Positions 10,382 through 37,839 of a stretch of DNA of 64,000 nucleotides are shown piece by piece; within the stretch, counting starts at the first letter, position 1, and every line of letters begins with the position of its first letter. This stretch comes from Bacteroidales bacterium UBA1205. GTDB lineage: Bacteria; Bacteroidota; Bacteroidia; Bacteroidales; WCHB1-69. Below the pieces are notes generated by a model. It did not search any database. It had not been told where the DNA came from and saw only the letters and a list, made by a program, of their open reading frames with translations. Made by a program: the position numbers and the translations under genes. Where the stretch lies: NCBI GenBank assembly GCA_002309615.1, contig DBXT01000042.1, positions 2,154 through 66,153 of the forward strand. The letters run 5' to 3'.

Positions 10382-10831
10382 ATGGAAAAATTATTAAATA
10401 GAATAACAACTATAGCAGCATTTGCGATAGCTATTATAGCCAGCGTATTTGTATTAGTTGCTGCTATGCATGGTAAAAGCTATCTTCAGGCGGGTGTTGA
10501 AAATCAACATTCTTTAGACATAGCTTTTTATATTACATACTTTATGGTGTTTCTTATTGCTATTGCATTGATAGGTTTTACCATCATGCAAATTGCAAGC
10601 GATAAAAACCGTATAAAAAGTACCCTTATATTATTAGGTATAGTTGCCGTTGTAACCATTATTGCCTATTTCACCGCTTCAAGCAATTTGAGCGAAGTTG
10701 CCATCCGCGTCGGCACCACCACAGGCATGTACAAATGGTCGGGCACCTTATTAAATATTGCTTACATCATGTTCTTTGGTGTATTTGCAGCTTTGATAGG
10801 TTCAGTTATTTATACCAAGATTAAAAAATAG
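10382..10831 (+). CDS. Small integral membrane protein (hypothetical) within the exbBD cluster
   Basis: Four predicted TM helices. The ATG at 10382 gives MEKLLNR; the track ORF starts at TTG 10376. Confidence 0.55.
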   Translation: MEKLLNRITTIAAFAIAIIASVFVLVAAMHGKSYLQAGVENQHSLDIAFYITYFMVFLIAIALIGFTIMQIASDKNRIKSTLILLGIVAVVTIIAYFTASSNLSEVAIRVGTTTGMYKWSGTLLNIAYIMFFGVFAALIGSVIYTKIKK

Positions 10832-31542: not shown

Positions 31543-31574
31543 CATATTTTTTTGATTAGAATGTTTTTTTTTTG

Positions 31575-31582
31575 TACCTTTG
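31575..31582 (+). promoter_or_regulatory. -7 promoter box TACCTTTG for the ATPase gene
   Basis: TACCTTTG lies 27 nt upstream of ATG 31609. Confidence 0.5.
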
Positions 31583-31608
31583 CATCCGTATTCATCAAAT
31601 TATCTATT

Positions 31609-32739
31609 ATGGATTTACTTAACAGAACTCTTCAGCAAGTTATTGAAAATAGAATATTTAAAGGTAAAGCCATAGTGCTTGTCGGTGCGAGACAAGTTGG
31701 CAAAAGCACTCTTTTCCGTCAGATTTTATCCTCCTGTCATGATATACTGACCTTAAACTGCGACGATATAGAAACCCGCAATCTGCTTGAAAATGCCAAT
31801 TTGAGCGAATTGCAACGACTTGTCGGTTCACATACTATAGTTATGATTGATGAAGCTCAACGACTAAAAGGAGCCGGACTTACCATGAAACTTATTACCG
31901 ACAATATGCCCGATGTTCAGTTGCTCATCACAGGATCATCATCTTTTATGCTTCAAGGCAGTCTTAACGAGCCGCTTACCGGTCGCAAATTTGAATATCA
32001 TCTATTTCCATTTTCCACCCAAGAGATAAACGATAATCTCGGATATTTGCGTACCCGTCAACTGTTGGAATCCCGACTTATATTCGGCTCCTATCCGGAT
32101 GTTATTAATCATATTGCGGATAGTGCAGATATTTTATCCAACCTTTCAAGCAGTTACATGTATCAGGATTTGCTCTCATTGGAAGGAATACGCAAACCCG
32201 TGATTATTGAAAAATTGTTGATAGCCTTAGCTTTGCAATTGGGTAATGAAGTATCATACTACGAACTTTCAAAAACCGTCGGGTCGGATGTAAAAACCAT
32301 TGAGAAATATGTTGACCTGCTTGAAAAATGCTATATAATATTCCGCCTGCCCGCTCTGAATCGGAATATGCGTTCAGAACTCAAAAAAGGAAAAAAAATA
32401 TTTTTCTACGATAACGGCATCCGCAATTCCATCATACATAACCTCAATCCGCTCTCCCTACGAAACGATATAGGGGCATTGTGGGAAAATTTTATTGTAA
32501 GCGAAAGAATAAAATATAATCACTATCGCGGACATCATGTAAACTATTATTTCTGGAGAACAACCACACAACAAGAAATAGACTTTATTGAAGAAAGTGG
32601 CGGCGAATTCCAACTTTTTGAGATGAAATGGAACCCCAAGAAAACTCTTGTACAAGCTCCACGGGAATTTACAAAAGCATATGGAGAAATGCCCTTTGCA
32701 ACCATCACTCCTGACAATTACCTTGATTTTCTGACATAA
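31609..32739 (+). CDS. AAA-ATPase with a C-terminal DUF4143/PD-(D/E)xK-like domain (COG1373-type)
   Basis: Walker A 'GARQVGKST', Walker B 'VMIDEAQ', and C-terminal 'QQEIDFIEE...LFEMKW' (D..ExK-like). The start MDLLNR at 31609 lies downstream of the promoter box. Confidence 0.8.
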   Translation: MDLLNRTLQQVIENRIFKGKAIVLVGARQVGKSTLFRQILSSCHDILTLNCDDIETRNLLENANLSELQRLVGSHTIVMIDEAQRLKGAGLTMKLITDNMPDVQLLITGSSSFMLQGSLNEPLTGRKFEYHLFPFSTQEINDNLGYLRTRQLLESRLIFGSYPDVINHIADSADILSNLSSSYMYQDLLSLEGIRKPVIIEKLLIALALQLGNEVSYYELSKTVGSDVKTIEKYVDLLEKCYIIFRLPALNRNMRSELKKGKKIFFYDNGIRNSIIHNLNPLSLRNDIGALWENFIVSERIKYNHYRGHHVNYYFWRTTTQQEIDFIEESGGEFQLFEMKWNPKKTLVQAPREFTKAYGEMPFATITPDNYLDFLT

Positions 32740-33309: not shown

Positions 33310-34992
33310 TCACACATATCTACTAAAGTTCTCAACTTCGTGATATTCAATATACTCAGTCAACCTATTAATTTCGTCTTCATTAATACAAGAGTTGTCC
33401 GGATTTTGAAATATATTCTTAATATCTTCTTTTAACCAATCAATGTTCCAGATACTTTCGTTTGCATTTGCAGCATATTGGCATAAAGGTTCTGAAAATT
33501 CTTTATTGCGGTTTTCTTTAATAGTCAATCTTTGTAGCCATATTTCCAAATAACCCACATTAGGTAGCTGATCAAATTTTTTCAAGATTTTCTCAATTAC
33601 TTCTTTTTTCTTATTAGTATCTGGCTCTTGTGATAAAATCTTGCTTACGATAGCAACGAATGTTTTGTATACCTTTGGATTATTGAAAGCAATATTTGTT
33701 AATATACTAATTAAGACATCTGAAGAACCGAATTCTTTATATAAATCCAATTTTTCTGTTTCTGAAATCCATTTGAAGAACAAATCCATTGATTTTTGAA
33801 CAGAACCTGAGTTCGGGTATTCTTGTGCTAATCTGTTTATACGCAACAGATGTTTCTGTAAACTATATTTGTTATCTTTTTTTTCTAAATCCTTGTAGCC
33901 ATTCGTAATATAATACAATTTGTCAGGCTTGATTGCTCCGTTTATTATATCCTGAGTTATCATTGTTTTCTGAGTGTTGAGTCTAAAATTCAAACTTGAC
34001 AAAACCTCCGTTAAGATTTTAGCAATTTTAATGACGTCCTCTTGCGAGTTTCCAAAAATGCGATAATCATCACGATAACGTAAAATTCGGTAGTCTGATA
34101 TTTTTGCCTTAAAAATCTTTTCAGATAACAACAAATCAGCATAACCCAACACTATTTCTGCAATAAAATCCATTAAAACACTGCCTTGAGGGATGCCATT
34201 AGTTTGTTGATATGACATGGATTGTATACGTGAATCAATAATATCACCTACTGTATATCGGTTCTTAACTTGTTGTAAATAAATAATAGCTTCACTACTT
34301 CCATCTAAAAATTTAGTATTACAAACACTTAGCAACTCAGCATTTAGTTCAACTTCTTTATTTTTATTTCTGTATTTATGTTTAATTTTTGCATTCTCTT
34401 TTCCACACATTGCCCATGTTATAGAGTGTGTATAAATCGATCCATAACAATCTGTTATGTCGGTTGTTATTAGATAATTGAAATTCATAGCCAACTTTAT
34501 GGATTGCTGTTCAATTTCCTCCCACCAATTTAGAATCGTATTTGTACTATTTTTCTGTTTCGACAAATTAATAATAGGTAAACTATAGCATTTAATTTTA
34601 TCGTTTTTTGCAAACTCCTGAAACCTTTCAACTATCAATGCCCAATTATCTTCTTTTGTAATTTCATTGACTAAATAAACATATAGTACTGGGTTAATAA
34701 TTTGCAAAGGACGCCACGAAAATCGTCCATCTTTATTTTGAAAGAAATGATAATTGACGTTTTCAATTGTCTTAGGTTCTACATCCAAAATATCGCTTTT
34801 TTGTGTTTTATTTTCTTTATACTTATATCTCTTGCATACAAGGAAACTTGTCAATTCGTTTAACAATTTTTGAAAATCAAAATATTTAGGCAAGCAGATA
34901 TTACAAAACGATTCTTGTCTCAAAAAAAAATGTTTTGCTTCTTCTGCTGAAGCATCAATGATAAAAGTATTCATAAATCTTTTTTCTATCAA
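33310..34992 (-). CDS. Reverse transcriptase, AbiK/Abi-P2/UG-like, with a ~215 aa helical C-terminal domain
   Basis: RT motif A is 'ITTDITDCYGSIYTHSITW' (aa 175-193), motif B 'NGIPQGSVLMDFIAEIVLG' (aa 265-283), motif C 'RYRDDYRIFG' (YRDD = nt 34066-34077) and motif D/E 'LNFRLNTQKT'. The track start at 34992 is TTG. The first ATG is at 34974 (MNTFIID). Confidence 0.85.
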   Translation of the reverse strand: MIEKRFMNTFIIDASAEEAKHFFLRQESFCNICLPKYFDFQKLLNELTSFLVCKRYKYKENKTQKSDILDVEPKTIENVNYHFFQNKDGRFSWRPLQIINPVLYVYLVNEITKEDNWALIVERFQEFAKNDKIKCYSLPIINLSKQKNSTNTILNWWEEIEQQSIKLAMNFNYLITTDITDCYGSIYTHSITWAMCGKENAKIKHKYRNKNKEVELNAELLSVCNTKFLDGSSEAIIYLQQVKNRYTVGDIIDSRIQSMSYQQTNGIPQGSVLMDFIAEIVLGYADLLLSEKIFKAKISDYRILRYRDDYRIFGNSQEDVIKIAKILTEVLSSLNFRLNTQKTMITQDIINGAIKPDKLYYITNGYKDLEKKDNKYSLQKHLLRINRLAQEYPNSGSVQKSMDLFFKWISETEKLDLYKEFGSSDVLISILTNIAFNNPKVYKTFVAIVSKILSQEPDTNKKKEVIEKILKKFDQLPNVGYLEIWLQRLTIKENRNKEFSEPLCQYAANANESIWNIDWLKEDIKNIFQNPDNSCINEDEINRLTEYIEYHEVENFSRYV

Positions 34993-34995
34993 ATA

Positions 34996-36618
34996 TTATT
35001 TCTTCAATTCTATCTCATAAAAACACCATCCACCCTCTACAGTTTCTCTTAAATTCATTTCAGTTGTAGCGAACGGAATAGGAGGAAAGTATAATGTGAA
35101 TGTTATATCTTCTCCATTAGAGAAAAAATATGTTTTTTGCGGAGCTATTGCTATTCCTTCTGCTTTTGTCATTGTATACGCTCTCCCATTAACAGATAGA
35201 TAAGTATTCTTATCAATATAGCAATAATCAGCGTAAGAATCACCTATTTTATTATTGGCAATAATCTCAACTGCTGTATATTCTTTTTTCAAAGTAACAC
35301 TTTTGATTTTTGTATTTTCTGCCGATGCCGATTTAGTTCTTACCGTGGGCCAATATATTGTATTGGAAGAATTTACATTGGGCGATACACTTCGCTCATT
35401 GTAAGATGATTGTGTTGAAGAATTAGCGGACGTTGATTGATTAGAACACTTAATCAAAAAAACAAAGTTTTTTAAACTTTTGACTTTGTCGCTTAATTTC
35501 ATTCCGGAAACTGTATTGTTTGTTGGCAGTACGGATGTTAACGATGCACTTTCCACAAGATTTCTCAACAAAGAAGTTTTAATTGCATAACCGACATTTT
35601 CCGCTCCAATATGTTTAGCATTGACAATGCCTATAAGATTGCCATTATTATCAAAGAGAGGACCACCACTATTTCCCGGCTGTACAGGTGCTGAAATTTG
35701 ATACAAAGATGCATCTCCCTGAAAACCTGTTTTGGAGCTTATCACACCTGTGGTAAGTTTTATTTCATCTCCCATGGTACTTGTCAAAGGATAACCCAAA
35801 ACAAATATTTCTTCTCCGACTTCAGATGTACTTGTTTTTATTTTGTATGGTAATGTTCCGAATCCTTTAAATCTGTTATCGTTTATTTTTAATATTGCCA
35901 AGTCATTTATTTTGTCCGTAGCTACAACTGATGCCGAATATGAAACATCAAAATTTCCGTTTACACCATTAATGTTGATAGATTTAGCATCTTCTACAAC
36001 ATGGTAATTTGTTACAATGTAACCATTGTTTAATGCAAATCCTGTTCCTGACCAATTTTCAATTTTTGACTCTTCCTCTCTTTCTTTAATTTCTCTTTCA
36101 GCTTGCCAATACATTTCTTTTGTAGGATAGGTTTTTATTAATTTATAGTGCAATATACATTTTGCTGATGCTGCAGCATCTCTTCCCATAGATTTAGCAA
36201 GAGCTTCTTTCGGTATGTTCAATTTAAAATCTAACGTTGTTCCGTTGTACAATGTAACCCATTCTTCCATAGAGTAATCCTTAAAGGTTTGTGTAAATCT
36301 ATATTGGTTAGATTCTCCGATTCTTGAAAAAATAGCTGCTCCTCCATCTTGACCTCCAATAGCATATCTATTATTGCCTATTTTTTGAATAAAAATAGTT
36401 TCAAAAGTATTATTAGGAGGGAAAGCCCTACCGAGAGCAAAAACTTGACTAGACATAGACATTTCATACACCCCTTCAATTGGATCTAATGAGCTGATAT
36501 TATTTTTGAAATATTCTTTTGCTCTAATCAGATCTGTTCTAGTTTGTCCCATTACACTTGCAACAACACACATTAAAAGTATGCACATACATAATTTGGA
36601 AATTCTATTTGTTTTCAT
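34996..36618 (-). CDS. Exported trypsin-like (S1/Trypsin_2-type) serine protease with unknown N- and C-terminal domains
   Basis: The signal peptide is MKTNRISKLCMCILLMCVVASVMGQ. The catalytic triad context is 'TNYHVV' (His206), 'INDLAILKI' (Asp239) and 'GNSGGPLF' (Ser317). An S/N/T-rich linker spans aa ~391-420. The stop lies 3 nt (TTG start) or 21 nt (ATG start) before the RT start. Confidence 0.85.
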   Translation of the reverse strand: MKTNRISKLCMCILLMCVVASVMGQTRTDLIRAKEYFKNNISSLDPIEGVYEMSMSSQVFALGRAFPPNNTFETIFIQKIGNNRYAIGGQDGGAAIFSRIGESNQYRFTQTFKDYSMEEWVTLYNGTTLDFKLNIPKEALAKSMGRDAAASAKCILHYKLIKTYPTKEMYWQAEREIKEREEESKIENWSGTGFALNNGYIVTNYHVVEDAKSININGVNGNFDVSYSASVVATDKINDLAILKINDNRFKGFGTLPYKIKTSTSEVGEEIFVLGYPLTSTMGDEIKLTTGVISSKTGFQGDASLYQISAPVQPGNSGGPLFDNNGNLIGIVNAKHIGAENVGYAIKTSLLRNLVESASLTSVLPTNNTVSGMKLSDKVKSLKNFVFLIKCSNQSTSANSSTQSSYNERSVSPNVNSSNTIYWPTVRTKSASAENTKIKSVTLKKEYTAVEIIANNKIGDSYADYCYIDKNTYLSVNGRAYTMTKAEGIAIAPQKTYFFSNGEDITFTLYFPPIPFATTEMNLRETVEGGWCFYEIELKK

Positions 36619-36649
36619 AAATCTATATTTGATATGTTAACATTTATTC

Positions 36650-36675
36650 ACTTCGCCCGATTCCCAAAGACGAAC
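36650..36675. repeat. Cassette-flanking imperfect direct repeat, copy B
   Basis: See copy A. This copy lies 31 nt upstream of the protease ATG. Confidence 0.5.
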
Positions 36676-36701
36676 AAAACAAAAAACACTCAAAACCACA
36701 T

Positions 36702-36741
36702 AAAAAAAAGCGCGGGAATCAGAACTTTTGCTCATCCCGCG
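36702..36741 (-). terminator. Intrinsic terminator/attenuator-like hairpin at the 3' end of the structured RNA
   Basis: The minus strand reads CGCGGGA-U-GAGC-AAAA-GUUC-UGA-UCCCGCG-C-UUUUUUUU. The outer stem is 7 bp, the inner stem 4 bp, and a U8 tract follows. Confidence 0.6.
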
Positions 36742-37010
36742 TACAAGGTCTTCGCATTACCTACCAACCGAGGATAAGCAATGCCGAAGCCCACGCTGTA
36801 CGTATAAACGGATTTTAGGACATCCGCTATATAAAGACGCTATTCAATAGTGCCTTTCATATACAATACCATGGACACTGATCATTGCCTTACCGTGCGG
36901 TTGGTGTAGAATTTGCGAAGTTCTGTACGCCGCAGATAAAACGTCAGTTCAACGTCTTTTCTATGTTTTGTCGTCCACCCGCAAACCCGTCAAGGCTTCG
37001 GATGTTTGAC
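36702..37010 (-). ncRNA. Candidate ~300 nt structured non-coding RNA, or structured leader of the protease-RT operon; family unknown
   Basis: No ORF is present and GC is higher than in the neighbouring DNA. It has a -7 box at its 5' side and a hairpin plus U-tract at its 3' side. Long-range complementarities are 36750-36756/36914-36920 (7 bp), 36763-36770/36898-36905 (8 bp) and 36784-36791/36994-37001 (8 bp), with several local hairpins. The 5' boundary is approximate. Confidence 0.5.
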
Positions 37011-37014
37011 ACTG

Positions 37015-37022
37015 CAAAAGTA
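37015..37022 (-). promoter_or_regulatory. -7 promoter box (TACTTTTG on the minus strand) for the structured RNA/operon
   Basis: The plus strand reads CAAAAGTA. A TTTG lies upstream on the minus strand at 37052-37049, which is longer than ideal spacing. No other TAnnTTTG was found between here and the protease ATG. Confidence 0.4.
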
Positions 37023-37080
37023 ATAAAAAAAATGATATAAAAAACCAACAAAGTCAATTTGTTGAAAAAAATATCTGCAA

Positions 37081-37181
37081 GGACGTTTCATGAAACGTCC
37101 CCACAATATCATGGTGAGTTTTCACTATAGGTGGCTTTGACAAGCTCAGCCACCCATGTAAGGACGATGTGTACATCGTCC
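37081..37181. repeat. Three GC-rich stem-loops in the divergent intergenic region
   Basis: H1 is 37081-37100, GGACGTTTCATGAAACGTCC, a perfect 20 bp palindrome. H2 is 37130-37154, GGTGGCT..AGCCACC. H3 is 37162-37181, GGACGATGTGTACATCGTCC. H1 and H3 share the frame AAGGACG-N-CGTCCC(C/G)ACA. Confidence 0.6.
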
Positions 37182-37248
37182 CGACAGGTATCTCTCCATT
37201 AAGGTATGTATTGTCCATACAAATATCGGAATATTAATAAAAAAATAC

Positions 37249-37256
37249 TATCTTTG
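37249..37256 (+). promoter_or_regulatory. -7 promoter box TATCTTTG immediately upstream of coaE
   Basis: It ends 5 nt before ATG 37261, which implies a leaderless or near-leaderless mRNA if functional. Confidence 0.35.
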
Positions 37257-37260
37257 CAGT

Positions 37261-37839
37261 ATGAAAAAAATAGGGATTACCGGATATATCGGCAGTGGAA
37301 AAACCACGGCATGTATGATATTTGAGCATTTGGGAATTCCGGTGTATTATAGCGACAAGCAGGCCAAAGAGGCTTACAAGCAGGCGGAGATACAGGAGCA
37401 GATAGTGCAAATTGCGGGAGCGTCGGTGTATGAACACGGTGTACTCAACACTTCAGTTTTGGCGGATATTATATTCCGGCAGCCGGAGAAATTAGCACTT
37501 GTCAACGGAATTATACACCCTTATGTATGGAATCATTTTTTGCAGTGGTGTGAACAACAAGAGAGTGCCTATGTTTTGTTCGAATCCGCAATTTTGTTTC
37601 AAACGGGGTGGCATTCCCGCTTCGAAGATGTTATACTCATCCGCACGCCCATGGAAGAGTTGTACAATCGTATTCAATTTCGCAATCATTGGACTATCGA
37701 ACAAATATCTCGGCGGCTGCAACAGCAGAACATTTCTCCCGAGGCGGTTGAAACCTGCAAATACATAGTCGATAATGCGGAAGCAGACTTGATGCTGCCT
37801 CAAATATTGCAAATTCACAACGAAATTCTAAGCGAATAA
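37261..37839 (+). CDS. coaE: Dephospho-CoA kinase
   Basis: 'IGITGYIGSGKTT' P-loop, ~190 aa, typical CoaE length and layout. Confidence 0.88.
   Translation: MKKIGITGYIGSGKTTACMIFEHLGIPVYYSDKQAKEAYKQAEIQEQIVQIAGASVYEHGVLNTSVLADIIFRQPEKLALVNGIIHPYVWNHFLQWCEQQESAYVLFESAILFQTGWHSRFEDVILIRTPMEELYNRIQFRNHWTIEQISRRLQQQNISPEAVETCKYIVDNAEADLMLPQILQIHNEILSE

Follow-up and report, generated by a model that had tools for sequence, protein, structure and literature searches.

Terminator-type and orphan riboswitches, such as the cobalamin, lysine, M-box, T-box and c-di-GMP-I leaders, lie on the strand of the gene they precede, between its promoter and its open reading frame (ORF). Their hallmarks are a covarying multi-helix fold with conserved loops, a hairpin and U-tract near the start codon, and a sequence box with two alternative partners. 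The c-di-GMP riboswitches precede functionally mixed sets of genes. Other structured non-coding RNAs (ncRNAs) adjoin operons of defense-type reverse transcriptases (RTs), as in retrons (msr-msd), DRT2/UG2, DRT9/UG28 and DRT3/UG8. At the level of single-stranded DNA, the ssoA of pMV158-type plasmids lies beside a Mob_Pre relaxase gene and takes the form of a long, imperfect hairpin whose apex carries a TAGCGT box (CS-6). Lastly, the GibS/FopS small RNAs of Bacteroides are multicopy, promoter-driven ncRNAs that end in an intrinsic terminator; FopS has a single-stranded 5′ seed (R1 of that RNA) and one terminator hairpin, acts in trans on susC mRNAs, and its structure is reported to be deposited in Rfam (PMC11697453). 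Here we describe a structured RNA element of ~310 nt (positions 36702-37022, minus strand) that precedes the genes for a trypsin-like protease and an RT in a 64-kb stretch of DNA from Bacteroidales bacterium UBA1205 (contig DBXT01000042.1), hereafter the window.

Like the terminator-type riboswitches, this element and its relatives are located on the same strand between promoter and ORF, and they share the structural hallmarks listed above, with two potential partners for the box; like the c-di-GMP riboswitches, they precede mixed genes, namely those for adhesins, proteases, a chemoreceptor and mobile-element proteins. Unlike the known terminator-type riboswitches, the family has neither an Rfam model nor a pathway theme, and is often found at the relaxase-cargo junction of mobilizable elements. 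In many of its members, furthermore, the apical hairpin, deep in the fold, would supply its 3′ strand as the 5′ strand of the terminator, a role not taken by the outermost aptamer helix. In position and structure the family corresponds to a terminator-type riboswitch or attenuator, and we regard it as a candidate riboswitch. In the window, the element is probably the promoter-proximal 5′ leader of the protease-RT operon, subjecting it to regulated transcription attenuation in response to some signal; this assessment is based on comparative sequence analysis.

Two known types of RNA were considered and rejected. Identity with FopS/GibS does not fit a rod of 190-310 nt with six helices and no Rfam match, despite the shared traits of a multicopy, promoter-driven ncRNA family of gut Bacteroidaceae. 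A ToxI-like RNA of a type III toxin-antitoxin system does not fit either, as a scan of positions 36500-37300 revealed no tandem repeats.

The leader RNA family and its conserved fold

The first-pass annotation of this region, made from the sequence alone, had described it as free of ORFs, enriched in GC and highly self-complementary. All three descriptions bear out. The element contains no meaningful ORF, the sole frame that overlaps it being a trivial one of 51 aa on the opposite strand; its GC content is 0.44, versus 0.30-0.36 in the adjoining protease and RT genes; and the minimum free energy (MFE) computed for it with RNAfold is -116.4 kcal/mol, versus -87.9 +/- 4.9 kcal/mol for shuffled sequences (z = -5.84), with none of 100 shuffles folding as well. 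Among the outcomes that the annotation had named as adverse to its proposal were a hit to an unrelated Rfam family and a lack of covariation across homologs. Neither was found. Rfam 15 gave no gathering-score match across the whole window and nothing relevant at E <= 10 in 36400-37400, and the comparative analysis provides strong covariation support. Thus, we conclude that the RNA is real, but also that its partner is not the RT.

Relatives of the element were identified at many other loci (designated by L numbers). Distant homologs of the window protease (~50% aa identity; L013, L018 and L022) have a SIR2-like partner and a recognizably homologous RNA upstream, and the boxes GCGUGGG and CCACG(C)-U(n) also occur upstream of an FRG-protease pair (L019) and in the contexts of L007-9 and L001. 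A metagenome pattern search that required GCGUGGG and CACGY-UUUU, and that likewise forced an AGCGU box, returned 3 viral contigs and at least 120 metagenome matches, mostly from human gut and rumen; 5 matches were discarded as obvious chance, and the family-wide counts given below refer to copies among the matches listed. An alignment of 41 sequences below 90% identity (A4) was used to construct a covariance model, referred to as R1. Full-length matches to R1 were obtained for the window copy with cmsearch (36.5 bits, E = 8e-5, model positions 1-187 of 187), and for L001 (E = 2.7e-7), L010 (1.5e-4) and L007 (1.8e-3). There is no second R1 copy in the 64-kb window, and no match in L006, L002-L005 or L021.

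Members also occur in named species. A BLAST search with an L013-type copy gave unannotated matches in Phocaeicola massiliensis (97%), Parabacteroides distasonis (95%), Bacteroides finegoldii, B. uniformis pBUN1 and Prevotella sp. oral taxon 299; the four named-species matches that were fetched score E = 1e-23 to 1e-31 with R1. Rfam gave no match for the relatives L013, L019, L049 and L007 at E <= 1. A BLAST search of the window-type RNA against phages and plasmids yielded no real match, scans of viral contigs for L007-type and window-type patterns yielded nothing, and the leader of blaMUN-1 (see below) had no match in complete E. coli genomes. No description of such a Bacteroidales leader was found in the searchable literature, the coverage of which is incomplete, so this is not proof of novelty. 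Taken together, these searches delineate a large, apparently undescribed family of Bacteroidales leader RNAs, with more than 100 distinct representatives in at least four genera, that is missing from Rfam 15.

Two loci at the margin of the family deserve mention. On the viral contig L024, a second, weak R1 match (10437-10600; E = 6e-4) lies ~3.4 kb downstream of the main copy, and may be a divergent second copy. In L021, the gap of 860 nt upstream of a protease and SIR2-like locus (350-1213) has neither an R1 match nor a GCGUGGG box; this locus has either lost the leader or has another element in its place.

The anatomy common to the family consists of a -7 box; an optional 5′ hairpin, P0; a GACAUA box; a hairpin, P1; an interrupted rod, P2-P3-P4-P5, with conserved internal loops (AA/ACC and ..UUUCAAA../..AGG..); a P6 cap; and a tail, CCACGC, followed by a U-tract ~25-90 nt ahead of the start codon. 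To a 102-row alignment fitted to the model, P2 and P3 contribute 1976 cells, 98.9% of which are paired (99.4% for P3 alone), versus 29-47% when the partners are slid. All 13 of these pairs, i.e., 6 modeled in P2 and 7 in P3, change on both sides; one of them, for example, occurs as GC 38 times, as CG 32 times and as UA 27 times. The P2/P3 covariation score is 0.617, versus 0.174 for shuffles, and 0 of 500 shuffles score as high. An unfitted MAFFT alignment gives the same result, and RNAalifold applied to A4 recovers P2, P3 and P6 directly. In more distant relatives the CUUCGCA/UGCGAAG pairing of P3 becomes ACGUAGGAAA/UUUCCUACG. The P4 pairing of the window, ACCAACCG/CGGUUGGU, is replaced by UUGGAUAC/GUAUCCAA, GUAGUAC/GUACUAC, CUCUUCAA/UUGAAGAG and others, and the equivalent of P5 in L013 is GCAUAG/CUAUUGU. 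The register of P4 and P5 shifts between subtypes, and a column-wise pair search on the model-fitted alignment failed; we therefore used per-sequence duplex statistics, in which the inner-arm duplex of P4/P5 has a mean z of -2.96 relative to shuffles, with 82% of 73 distinct sequences below -2.

The P6 helix (CUCACGC/GCGUGGG) shows no covariation. It includes a U-G wobble in 91 of 102 rows, and the reverse strand scores lower with R1 by ~100 bits or more. The structure thus resides in the strand co-linear with the genes downstream. The GCGUGGG box is present in 9 of 9 independently found sequences, and CCACG(C) plus a U-tract ends every independently found member.

The window copy has all six family helices in addition to the P0 hairpin and an enlarged P6 loop, and compensatory changes in relatives confirm P1, P2, P3 and P4. 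The following coordinates all refer to the minus strand. A -7 promoter box, TACTTTTG, read from the sequence at 37015-37022, conforms to TAnnTTTG, the established -7 consensus of Bacteroides promoters, and places the expected transcription start at ~37008-37010. P0, which appears in both the MFE and the centroid fold of RNAfold, is the hairpin CAUCCGAAGCCU-UGAC-GGGUUUGCGGGUG (36976-37004); other subtypes have a different P0 or none. The family core, which extends from GACAAAACAUAG to the U-tract (36703-36972), is the part matched in full length by R1. It includes P1, AAGACGUU-GAACU-GACGUUUU (36938-36958), the counterpart of the family hairpin AAGCGU...GCUU; in other subtypes the P1 sequence differs and the hairpin is kept (e.g., GGAUGAAUAUCC). 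Of the helices of the rod, P2 pairs GCGUACAG (36923-36930) with UUGUACGC (36739-36746) in the cmsearch alignment, and the final 2 nt of its 3′ strand overlap the 5′ strand of the local terminator. P3, both read and recovered by the cmsearch alignment, pairs CUUCGCA (36914-36920) with UGCGAAG (36750-36756), which is followed by the conserved ACC internal loop. P4, namely ACCAACCG (36898-36905) with CGGUUGGU (36763-36770), and P5, namely GGUAAGGCAAUG (36883-36894) with CAUUGCUUAUCC (36772-36783), were read from the sequence. Together, P3 and P4 enclose ~127 nt.

The 5′ strand of P6, from the cmsearch alignment, is GUCCAUG (36870-36876), at the position where most members have CUCACGC, and its 3′ strand is AGCGUGGGC (36789-36797), which includes the GCGUGGG box. 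This 3′ strand is also complementary to the 3′ tail, CCCGCGCU, and the resulting duplex is computed at -15.5 kcal/mol. The P6 loop (36798-36869) harbors two extra hairpins and measures 74 nt, versus 29 nt in L010; 44 nt of it are absent in L010 and L012, so that most of the loop is specific to the window copy, and the cmsearch alignment likewise places a 74-nt insert here, versus 6 in the model. The element ends in an intrinsic-terminator-like structure (36702-36740), i.e., the hairpin GCGGGAU...AUUCCCGC, followed by GC and U8 (36709-36702), with a local hairpin energy of -13.4 kcal/mol (z = -3.3). An 83-nt spacer (36619-36701), in which no TAnnTTTG box was seen on reading, separates it from the start codon of the protease.

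These assignments retain most of what had been read from the sequence at first. The strings listed by the first-pass annotation are all found at the minus-strand positions it gave (CUUCGCA/UGCGAAG, ACCAACCG/CGGUUGGU and the complementary pair CCGAAGCC/GGCUUCGG), and so is the 3′ hairpin with U8. Its proposal that CCGAAGCC (37001-36994), part of P0, forms a crossing helix with GGCUUCGG (36791-36784) holds in part: the complementarity is real and is kept in L010 (9 bp), but other subtypes are without it. As the two strands are identical in the window and L010 copies, this helix is not assessable by covariation. Of the local hairpins, AAGACGUU/GACGUUUU is the P1 of the family, whereas CAAU..AGUG.CC/GGCACUAUUG and CGGAU/AUCCG cannot be family features, because they involve sequence from the stretch that is missing in the closest relative, L010. 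A further complementarity, between the 5′ strand of P1 ((A)AAAGCGU) and the 3′ end ACGCUUUU, is found family-wide (e.g., L019 208-406; window 36951-36960 versus 36702-36713), and might give rise to a closing helix between the 5′ and 3′ ends or to a third competitor for the terminator strand.

Gene context and predicted attenuation

Family members occupy the position of a cis-regulatory 5′ leader, i.e., with a promoter upstream, a co-oriented ORF nearby and a spacer that is mostly promoterless. In 109 of the 112 listed copies with enough downstream sequence, the U-tract is followed within 200 nt by the start of an ORF on the same strand. The -7 box, TAnnTTTG, is present ~130 nt upstream of P6 in 65 of 82 distinct copies, compared with 7% of random 110-nt windows; within the spacer, whose median length is 46 nt, a promoter box was found in 1 of 72. 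When copies at unrelated loci are compared, conservation is limited to the transcript (216-238 nt at 92-97% identity), and the flanks are unrelated.

The genes that follow are highly diverse. There are ~70 distinct first genes, most of which start with a signal peptide or lipoprotein box on inspection. A Pfam search of 65 of them identified BspA-type leucine-rich repeat proteins (7), trypsin-like proteases (6), proteins with a type IX secretion system (T9SS) sorting domain (4), DUF4011 helicases (2) and many singletons. PADLOC matches (Hhe, MkoA, TmtA, WYL, proteases) cover a minority of the first genes, ~a fifth as estimated from the family counts. The cargo of the leader-bearing loci comprises anti-phage systems (protease-RT, protease-SIR2, Hhe, Mokosh-like, GmrSD), blaMUN-1, BspA-type adhesins and T9SS substrates, and some of these genes are very long (2126-2135 aa).

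A subset of the loci is associated with mobile elements. Mob_Pre is the commonest gene immediately upstream (7 of 53 distinct, in addition to several truncated copies that share its C-terminal tail), and two unrelated relaxase families occur upstream; about a quarter of 38 loci have a toprim, integrase or relaxase gene within 6 kb, and the rest, like the window, are ordinary chromosomal neighborhoods. In pBUN1 (L149 5032-5214), the RNA directly follows genes for an integrase, a primase-helicase, a toprim protein and a relaxase annotated as MobV, and the next gene is the extended-spectrum beta-lactamase gene blaMUN-1. In P. distasonis (L148 5032-5217), it follows an array of AAA ATPase, toprim and 467-aa genes, the last of these at the place of the relaxase, and its cargo is a DUF4433 protein and hypothetical proteins. 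Nothing is annotated at the leader position in either record. At one type of locus, the cargo varies while the flanks and the leader around it stay the same (L013 versus L101, L037, L042 and L143). The 3′ boundary of this swappable cargo is a conserved element of ~150 nt with its own TAnnTTTG box (L013 4459-4609, L101 4629-4780, and L037, L042 and L143), whose fold is weakly better than that of shuffles (z = -1.6). A tmRNA gene lies ~1.6 kb beyond the variable cargo region of L013 (6171-6572, minus strand; Rfam E = 1.4e-54); tmRNA genes are known as hot spots for the integration of islands.

How might such a leader control its cargo? The GCGUGGG box has two possible partners, either the adjacent CUCACGC, with which it forms P6, or the 3′ tail CCACGC before the U-tract. 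Its invariance may be due to the need to stay complementary to both; i.e., a box tied to two complementary partners could be hard to change. The local hairpin of the tail is weak across the family (mean -3.9 kcal/mol, z = -0.5, several members folding at 0.0), and reaches the U-tract in 46 of 73. The duplex between the 3′ strand of P6 and the tail, on the other hand, has a mean of -14.8 kcal/mol, versus -11.2 kcal/mol for P6 itself. In L001 and L007, no local hairpin is seen on reading, and a pairing of 10-11 bp, GCGUGGGUAUC/GAUACCCACG, is available; some members have UUCACGC in place of CCACGC, and the pairing is kept through G-U.

In the mechanism we propose, the tail CCACGC-UUUU would form a terminator by one of two pairings. 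One partner would be a local upstream strand, as in the window copy. The other, in the many relatives where no local hairpin is usable, would be the P6 strand that contains GCGUGGG, a pairing that would exclude P6. The fate of RNA polymerase, to stop at the U-tract or to proceed into the cargo genes, would depend on the pairing that prevails, and a ligand, a protein or a condition would be sensed by the remainder of the conserved fold. A more specific idea, which we advance only tentatively, is that the family is a new class of riboswitch or attenuator that gates horizontally acquired cargo in gut Bacteroidales on a cellular signal, with the 3′ strand of the apical hairpin doubling as terminator stem.

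Several observations weigh against attenuation. The co-occurrence of GCGUGGG and CACGY-UUUU in at least 120 metagenome loci follows from the construction of the search pattern, and independent support for it is provided by only ~10 sequences, those found through proteins or BLAST. Beyond the boxes that were thus forced, complementarity is modest (mean z = -1.0). The helix between the 3′ strand of P6 and the tail crosses P2-P5, so that its formation needs either a pseudoknot spanning a rod estimated at ~100 A or partial unfolding. In the window copy, moreover, a strong local terminator shares no more than 2 nt with P2, and no switch is obvious here. Lastly, the 65 first genes scanned have no common pathway that would point to a ligand. 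A different mode of attenuation, through a leader peptide, was rejected: the 8-codon ORF that starts from the P1 loop in L013-type copies is missing in other subtypes and in the window.

The RNA could instead be a stand-alone molecule with a job of its own, the downstream gene being expressed by leaky read-through. It would then be a small RNA that acts in trans, the first-pass annotation having listed an unrelated small RNA among its options; an RNA that binds a protein or serves as a sponge; or a cis-acting RNA for processive antitermination, of the put/EAR kind, which lets RNA polymerase pass terminators throughout foreign cargo. We consider this unlikely, albeit worth weighing. The RNA does form a separate unit, bounded by a promoter of its own and by an end that resembles a terminator, and conservation at unrelated loci covers the transcript only; its conserved internal loops would fit the binding of a protein or of RNA polymerase, and antitermination would help the very long cargo genes. 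However, the co-orientation seen in 109 of 112 copies, the short promoterless spacers and a terminator right before the ORF are predictions of a cis-acting leader that a free small RNA does not need, and no target or seed region was identified. As to put/EAR-type RNAs, an integral terminator is, to our knowledge, not part of their design.

It is rather improbable that the element is a constitutive structured 5′ untranslated region that senses nothing, i.e., a portable promoter-leader module serving for insulation of the cargo against upstream transcription, for mRNA stability or as a homology patch for the swapping of cassettes. The exchange of cargo between the leader and the conserved 3′ boundary at the L013-type locus would be explained in this way, as would the recombinant nature of the window protease, whose 5′ part came along with the leader from a SIR2-type lineage (see below), and the lack of a ligand-related gene theme. 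Against this, an architecture of ~190 nt with many compensatory changes, conserved loops, a conserved box and a terminator-like end exceeds what insulation or homology needs.

We judge it quite improbable, too, that the conserved structure acts as single-stranded DNA, as a lagging-strand (single-strand) origin or other transfer site of mobilizable elements. The likeness to ssoA of the pMV158/pT181-family plasmids consists of a long imperfect, strand-specific hairpin with an apical (U/T)AGCG(U/T), downstream of Mob_Pre in a subset of loci. In P. distasonis and pBUN1 the element directly follows the mobilization backbone, and the frequency of Mob_Pre upstream, the toprim, integrase and relaxase genes in about a quarter of the loci, the rod-like architecture with apical UAGCGU, and the strand-specific structure with its conserved U-G pair in P6 all fit such a role. 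A location on a rolling-circle or mobilizable replicon next to Mob/Pre, however, is what characterizes ssoA, and it is found in only that quarter; most loci, including the window and most of the chromosomal ones, have no mobilization genes nearby. The two relaxase families upstream are unrelated, and the AGCGU box was forced by the search pattern. In addition, the family occurs in Bacteroidales, not in rolling-circle plasmids of Firmicutes, and the promoter at a fixed distance, the 3′ U-tract, and the promoterless ORF that follows closely, on the same strand in nearly all copies, are left unexplained. A cis-regulatory leader, one of the options offered by the first-pass annotation, is favored by the comparative data.

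The protease-RT locus

That the RNA is a template, primer or scaffold for the adjoining RT, the role suggested in the first-pass annotation on the precedent of retrons, DRT2 and DRT9, is very improbable, even though it adjoins the RT operon in the window, as RT-associated ncRNAs do, and two other loci with RT homologs (L001 and L007-9) have a family member within 2 kb: its presence is independent of the RT, which belongs to the Abi-P2 class. The locus closest to that of the window RT for which DNA was available, L006 (91% aa), lacks the RNA in a search with R1, and so do L002-L005. Conversely, the same RNA precedes pairs of a protease with a SIR2-like protein or an FRG protein, a C5 methylase, GmrSD, blaMUN-1 and ~65 other first genes, i.e., dozens of contexts without an RT. 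The family RNA of L001 is downstream of the RT, leading the gene for the C5 methylase, while that of L007-9 is upstream of an operon of TonB_C, a 181-aa protein and an RT. In the window itself, the RNA leads the protease gene, not that of the RT. Both an RT-associated ncRNA (retron, DRT2 or DRT9) and an ncRNA-using class of RT (retron RT, UG2, UG28, UG3+UG8) were thus rejected, the former as presence does not track the RT across homologous loci and no Rfam retron or DRT match was obtained, the latter as PADLOC assigns the window RT to AbiP2. Some UG/Abi RTs do use ncRNAs (PMC9226505), whereas Abi-P2 (Class 1) and AbiK are described as protein-primed, template-independent DNA polymerases (PMC9508834); the solved members of the Abi-P2 class polymerize without a template. 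We conclude that the adjoining RT almost certainly does not use the leader as template or scaffold.

The operon itself consists of two genes on the minus strand. The first (34996-36618) encodes a trypsin-like serine protease with an N-terminal signal peptide (Pfam Trypsin_2, E = 2.7e-28). Its true start is probably at 36588, which gives 530 aa, the length of the 100% identical protein P0121; the signal peptide ends in A-Q according to the alignment. The second (33310-34992), whose start overlaps the stop of the protease gene, encodes the RT-like polymerase (PADLOC AbiP2, E = 3.7e-181; Pfam RVT_1, E = 2.3e-9). The next PADLOC model for this protein is RT_UG14 (2e-50), and no signal peptide is apparent at its N-terminus on reading. 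On the other side of the RNA element lies coaE, which is divergent, as well as gcvH and BamA, and on the other flank lies ispG.

Comparison with related loci reveals that the window locus is recombinant. The flanks of L006 are 95% identical to those of the window at the nucleotide level, and its RT-protease region is 88% identical. This similarity ends inside the protease gene, at window position 36058; the L006 protease is 674 aa long, with neither the RNA nor an intergenic gap upstream. The first ~190 residues of the window protease are identical to those of P0122, the gene for which, in L010-L012, has the same RNA upstream (73% nt) and a 407-aa SIR2-like protein downstream, with no RT; the partner protein in L010 shows no similarity to the RT. 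Together, the shared N-terminus and the breakpoint near 36058 point to recombination inside the gene, the leader and the N-terminus of the protease probably stemming from a protease-SIR2 lineage, and its C-terminus and the RT from an L006-like lineage.

Several features of this region are worth recording in their own right. The signal-peptide-bearing, trypsin-like protease, which has a conserved C-terminal domain, occurs with interchangeable partners, namely the Abi-P2 RT, a SIR2-like protein, an FRG domain protein and DUF2971 (window 33310-36618, L010, L013, L018, L019, L022 and L023). An exported protease is an unusual neighbor for defense-type partners, especially given that no signal peptide is apparent in the RT. 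The protease and its swappable partner may constitute an uncharacterized modular two-gene system. Between the RT gene and a Wzi-like gene, an AAA_14/DUF4143 ATPase (PADLOC PDC-S01, E = 4e-155) is encoded at 31552-32739 on the plus strand; L006, although otherwise collinear, lacks an equivalent of the segment 31276-32743 at this position, and similar ATPase genes also follow the protease-SIR2 pairs in L010-L012. Directly upstream of the leader promoter, a second structured element (37064-37225, minus strand) is made up of three stable hairpins and a U7 tract after them (MFE -58.1 kcal/mol, z = -6.6), the last hairpin also being picked by a terminator scan. It has no Rfam match and is not common to L010; it may represent a further small RNA, insulating terminators in a stack, or a 54-aa ORF (37054-37218).

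Significance for the Bacteroidales

For those who study defense systems, the window locus is a caution that a structured RNA beside an RT is not, by itself, evidence of a template RNA, especially where the enzyme is of the Abi-P2 class. If our reading of the element as an attenuating leader is correct, the Bacteroidales of the human gut would gain a large and well-supported family of structured RNAs, which could serve as a ready-made orphan riboswitch candidate. The family could then be a common control point for the expression of foreign genes, located where mobile backbones meet their cargo, ahead of defense systems, a beta-lactamase and surface proteins.

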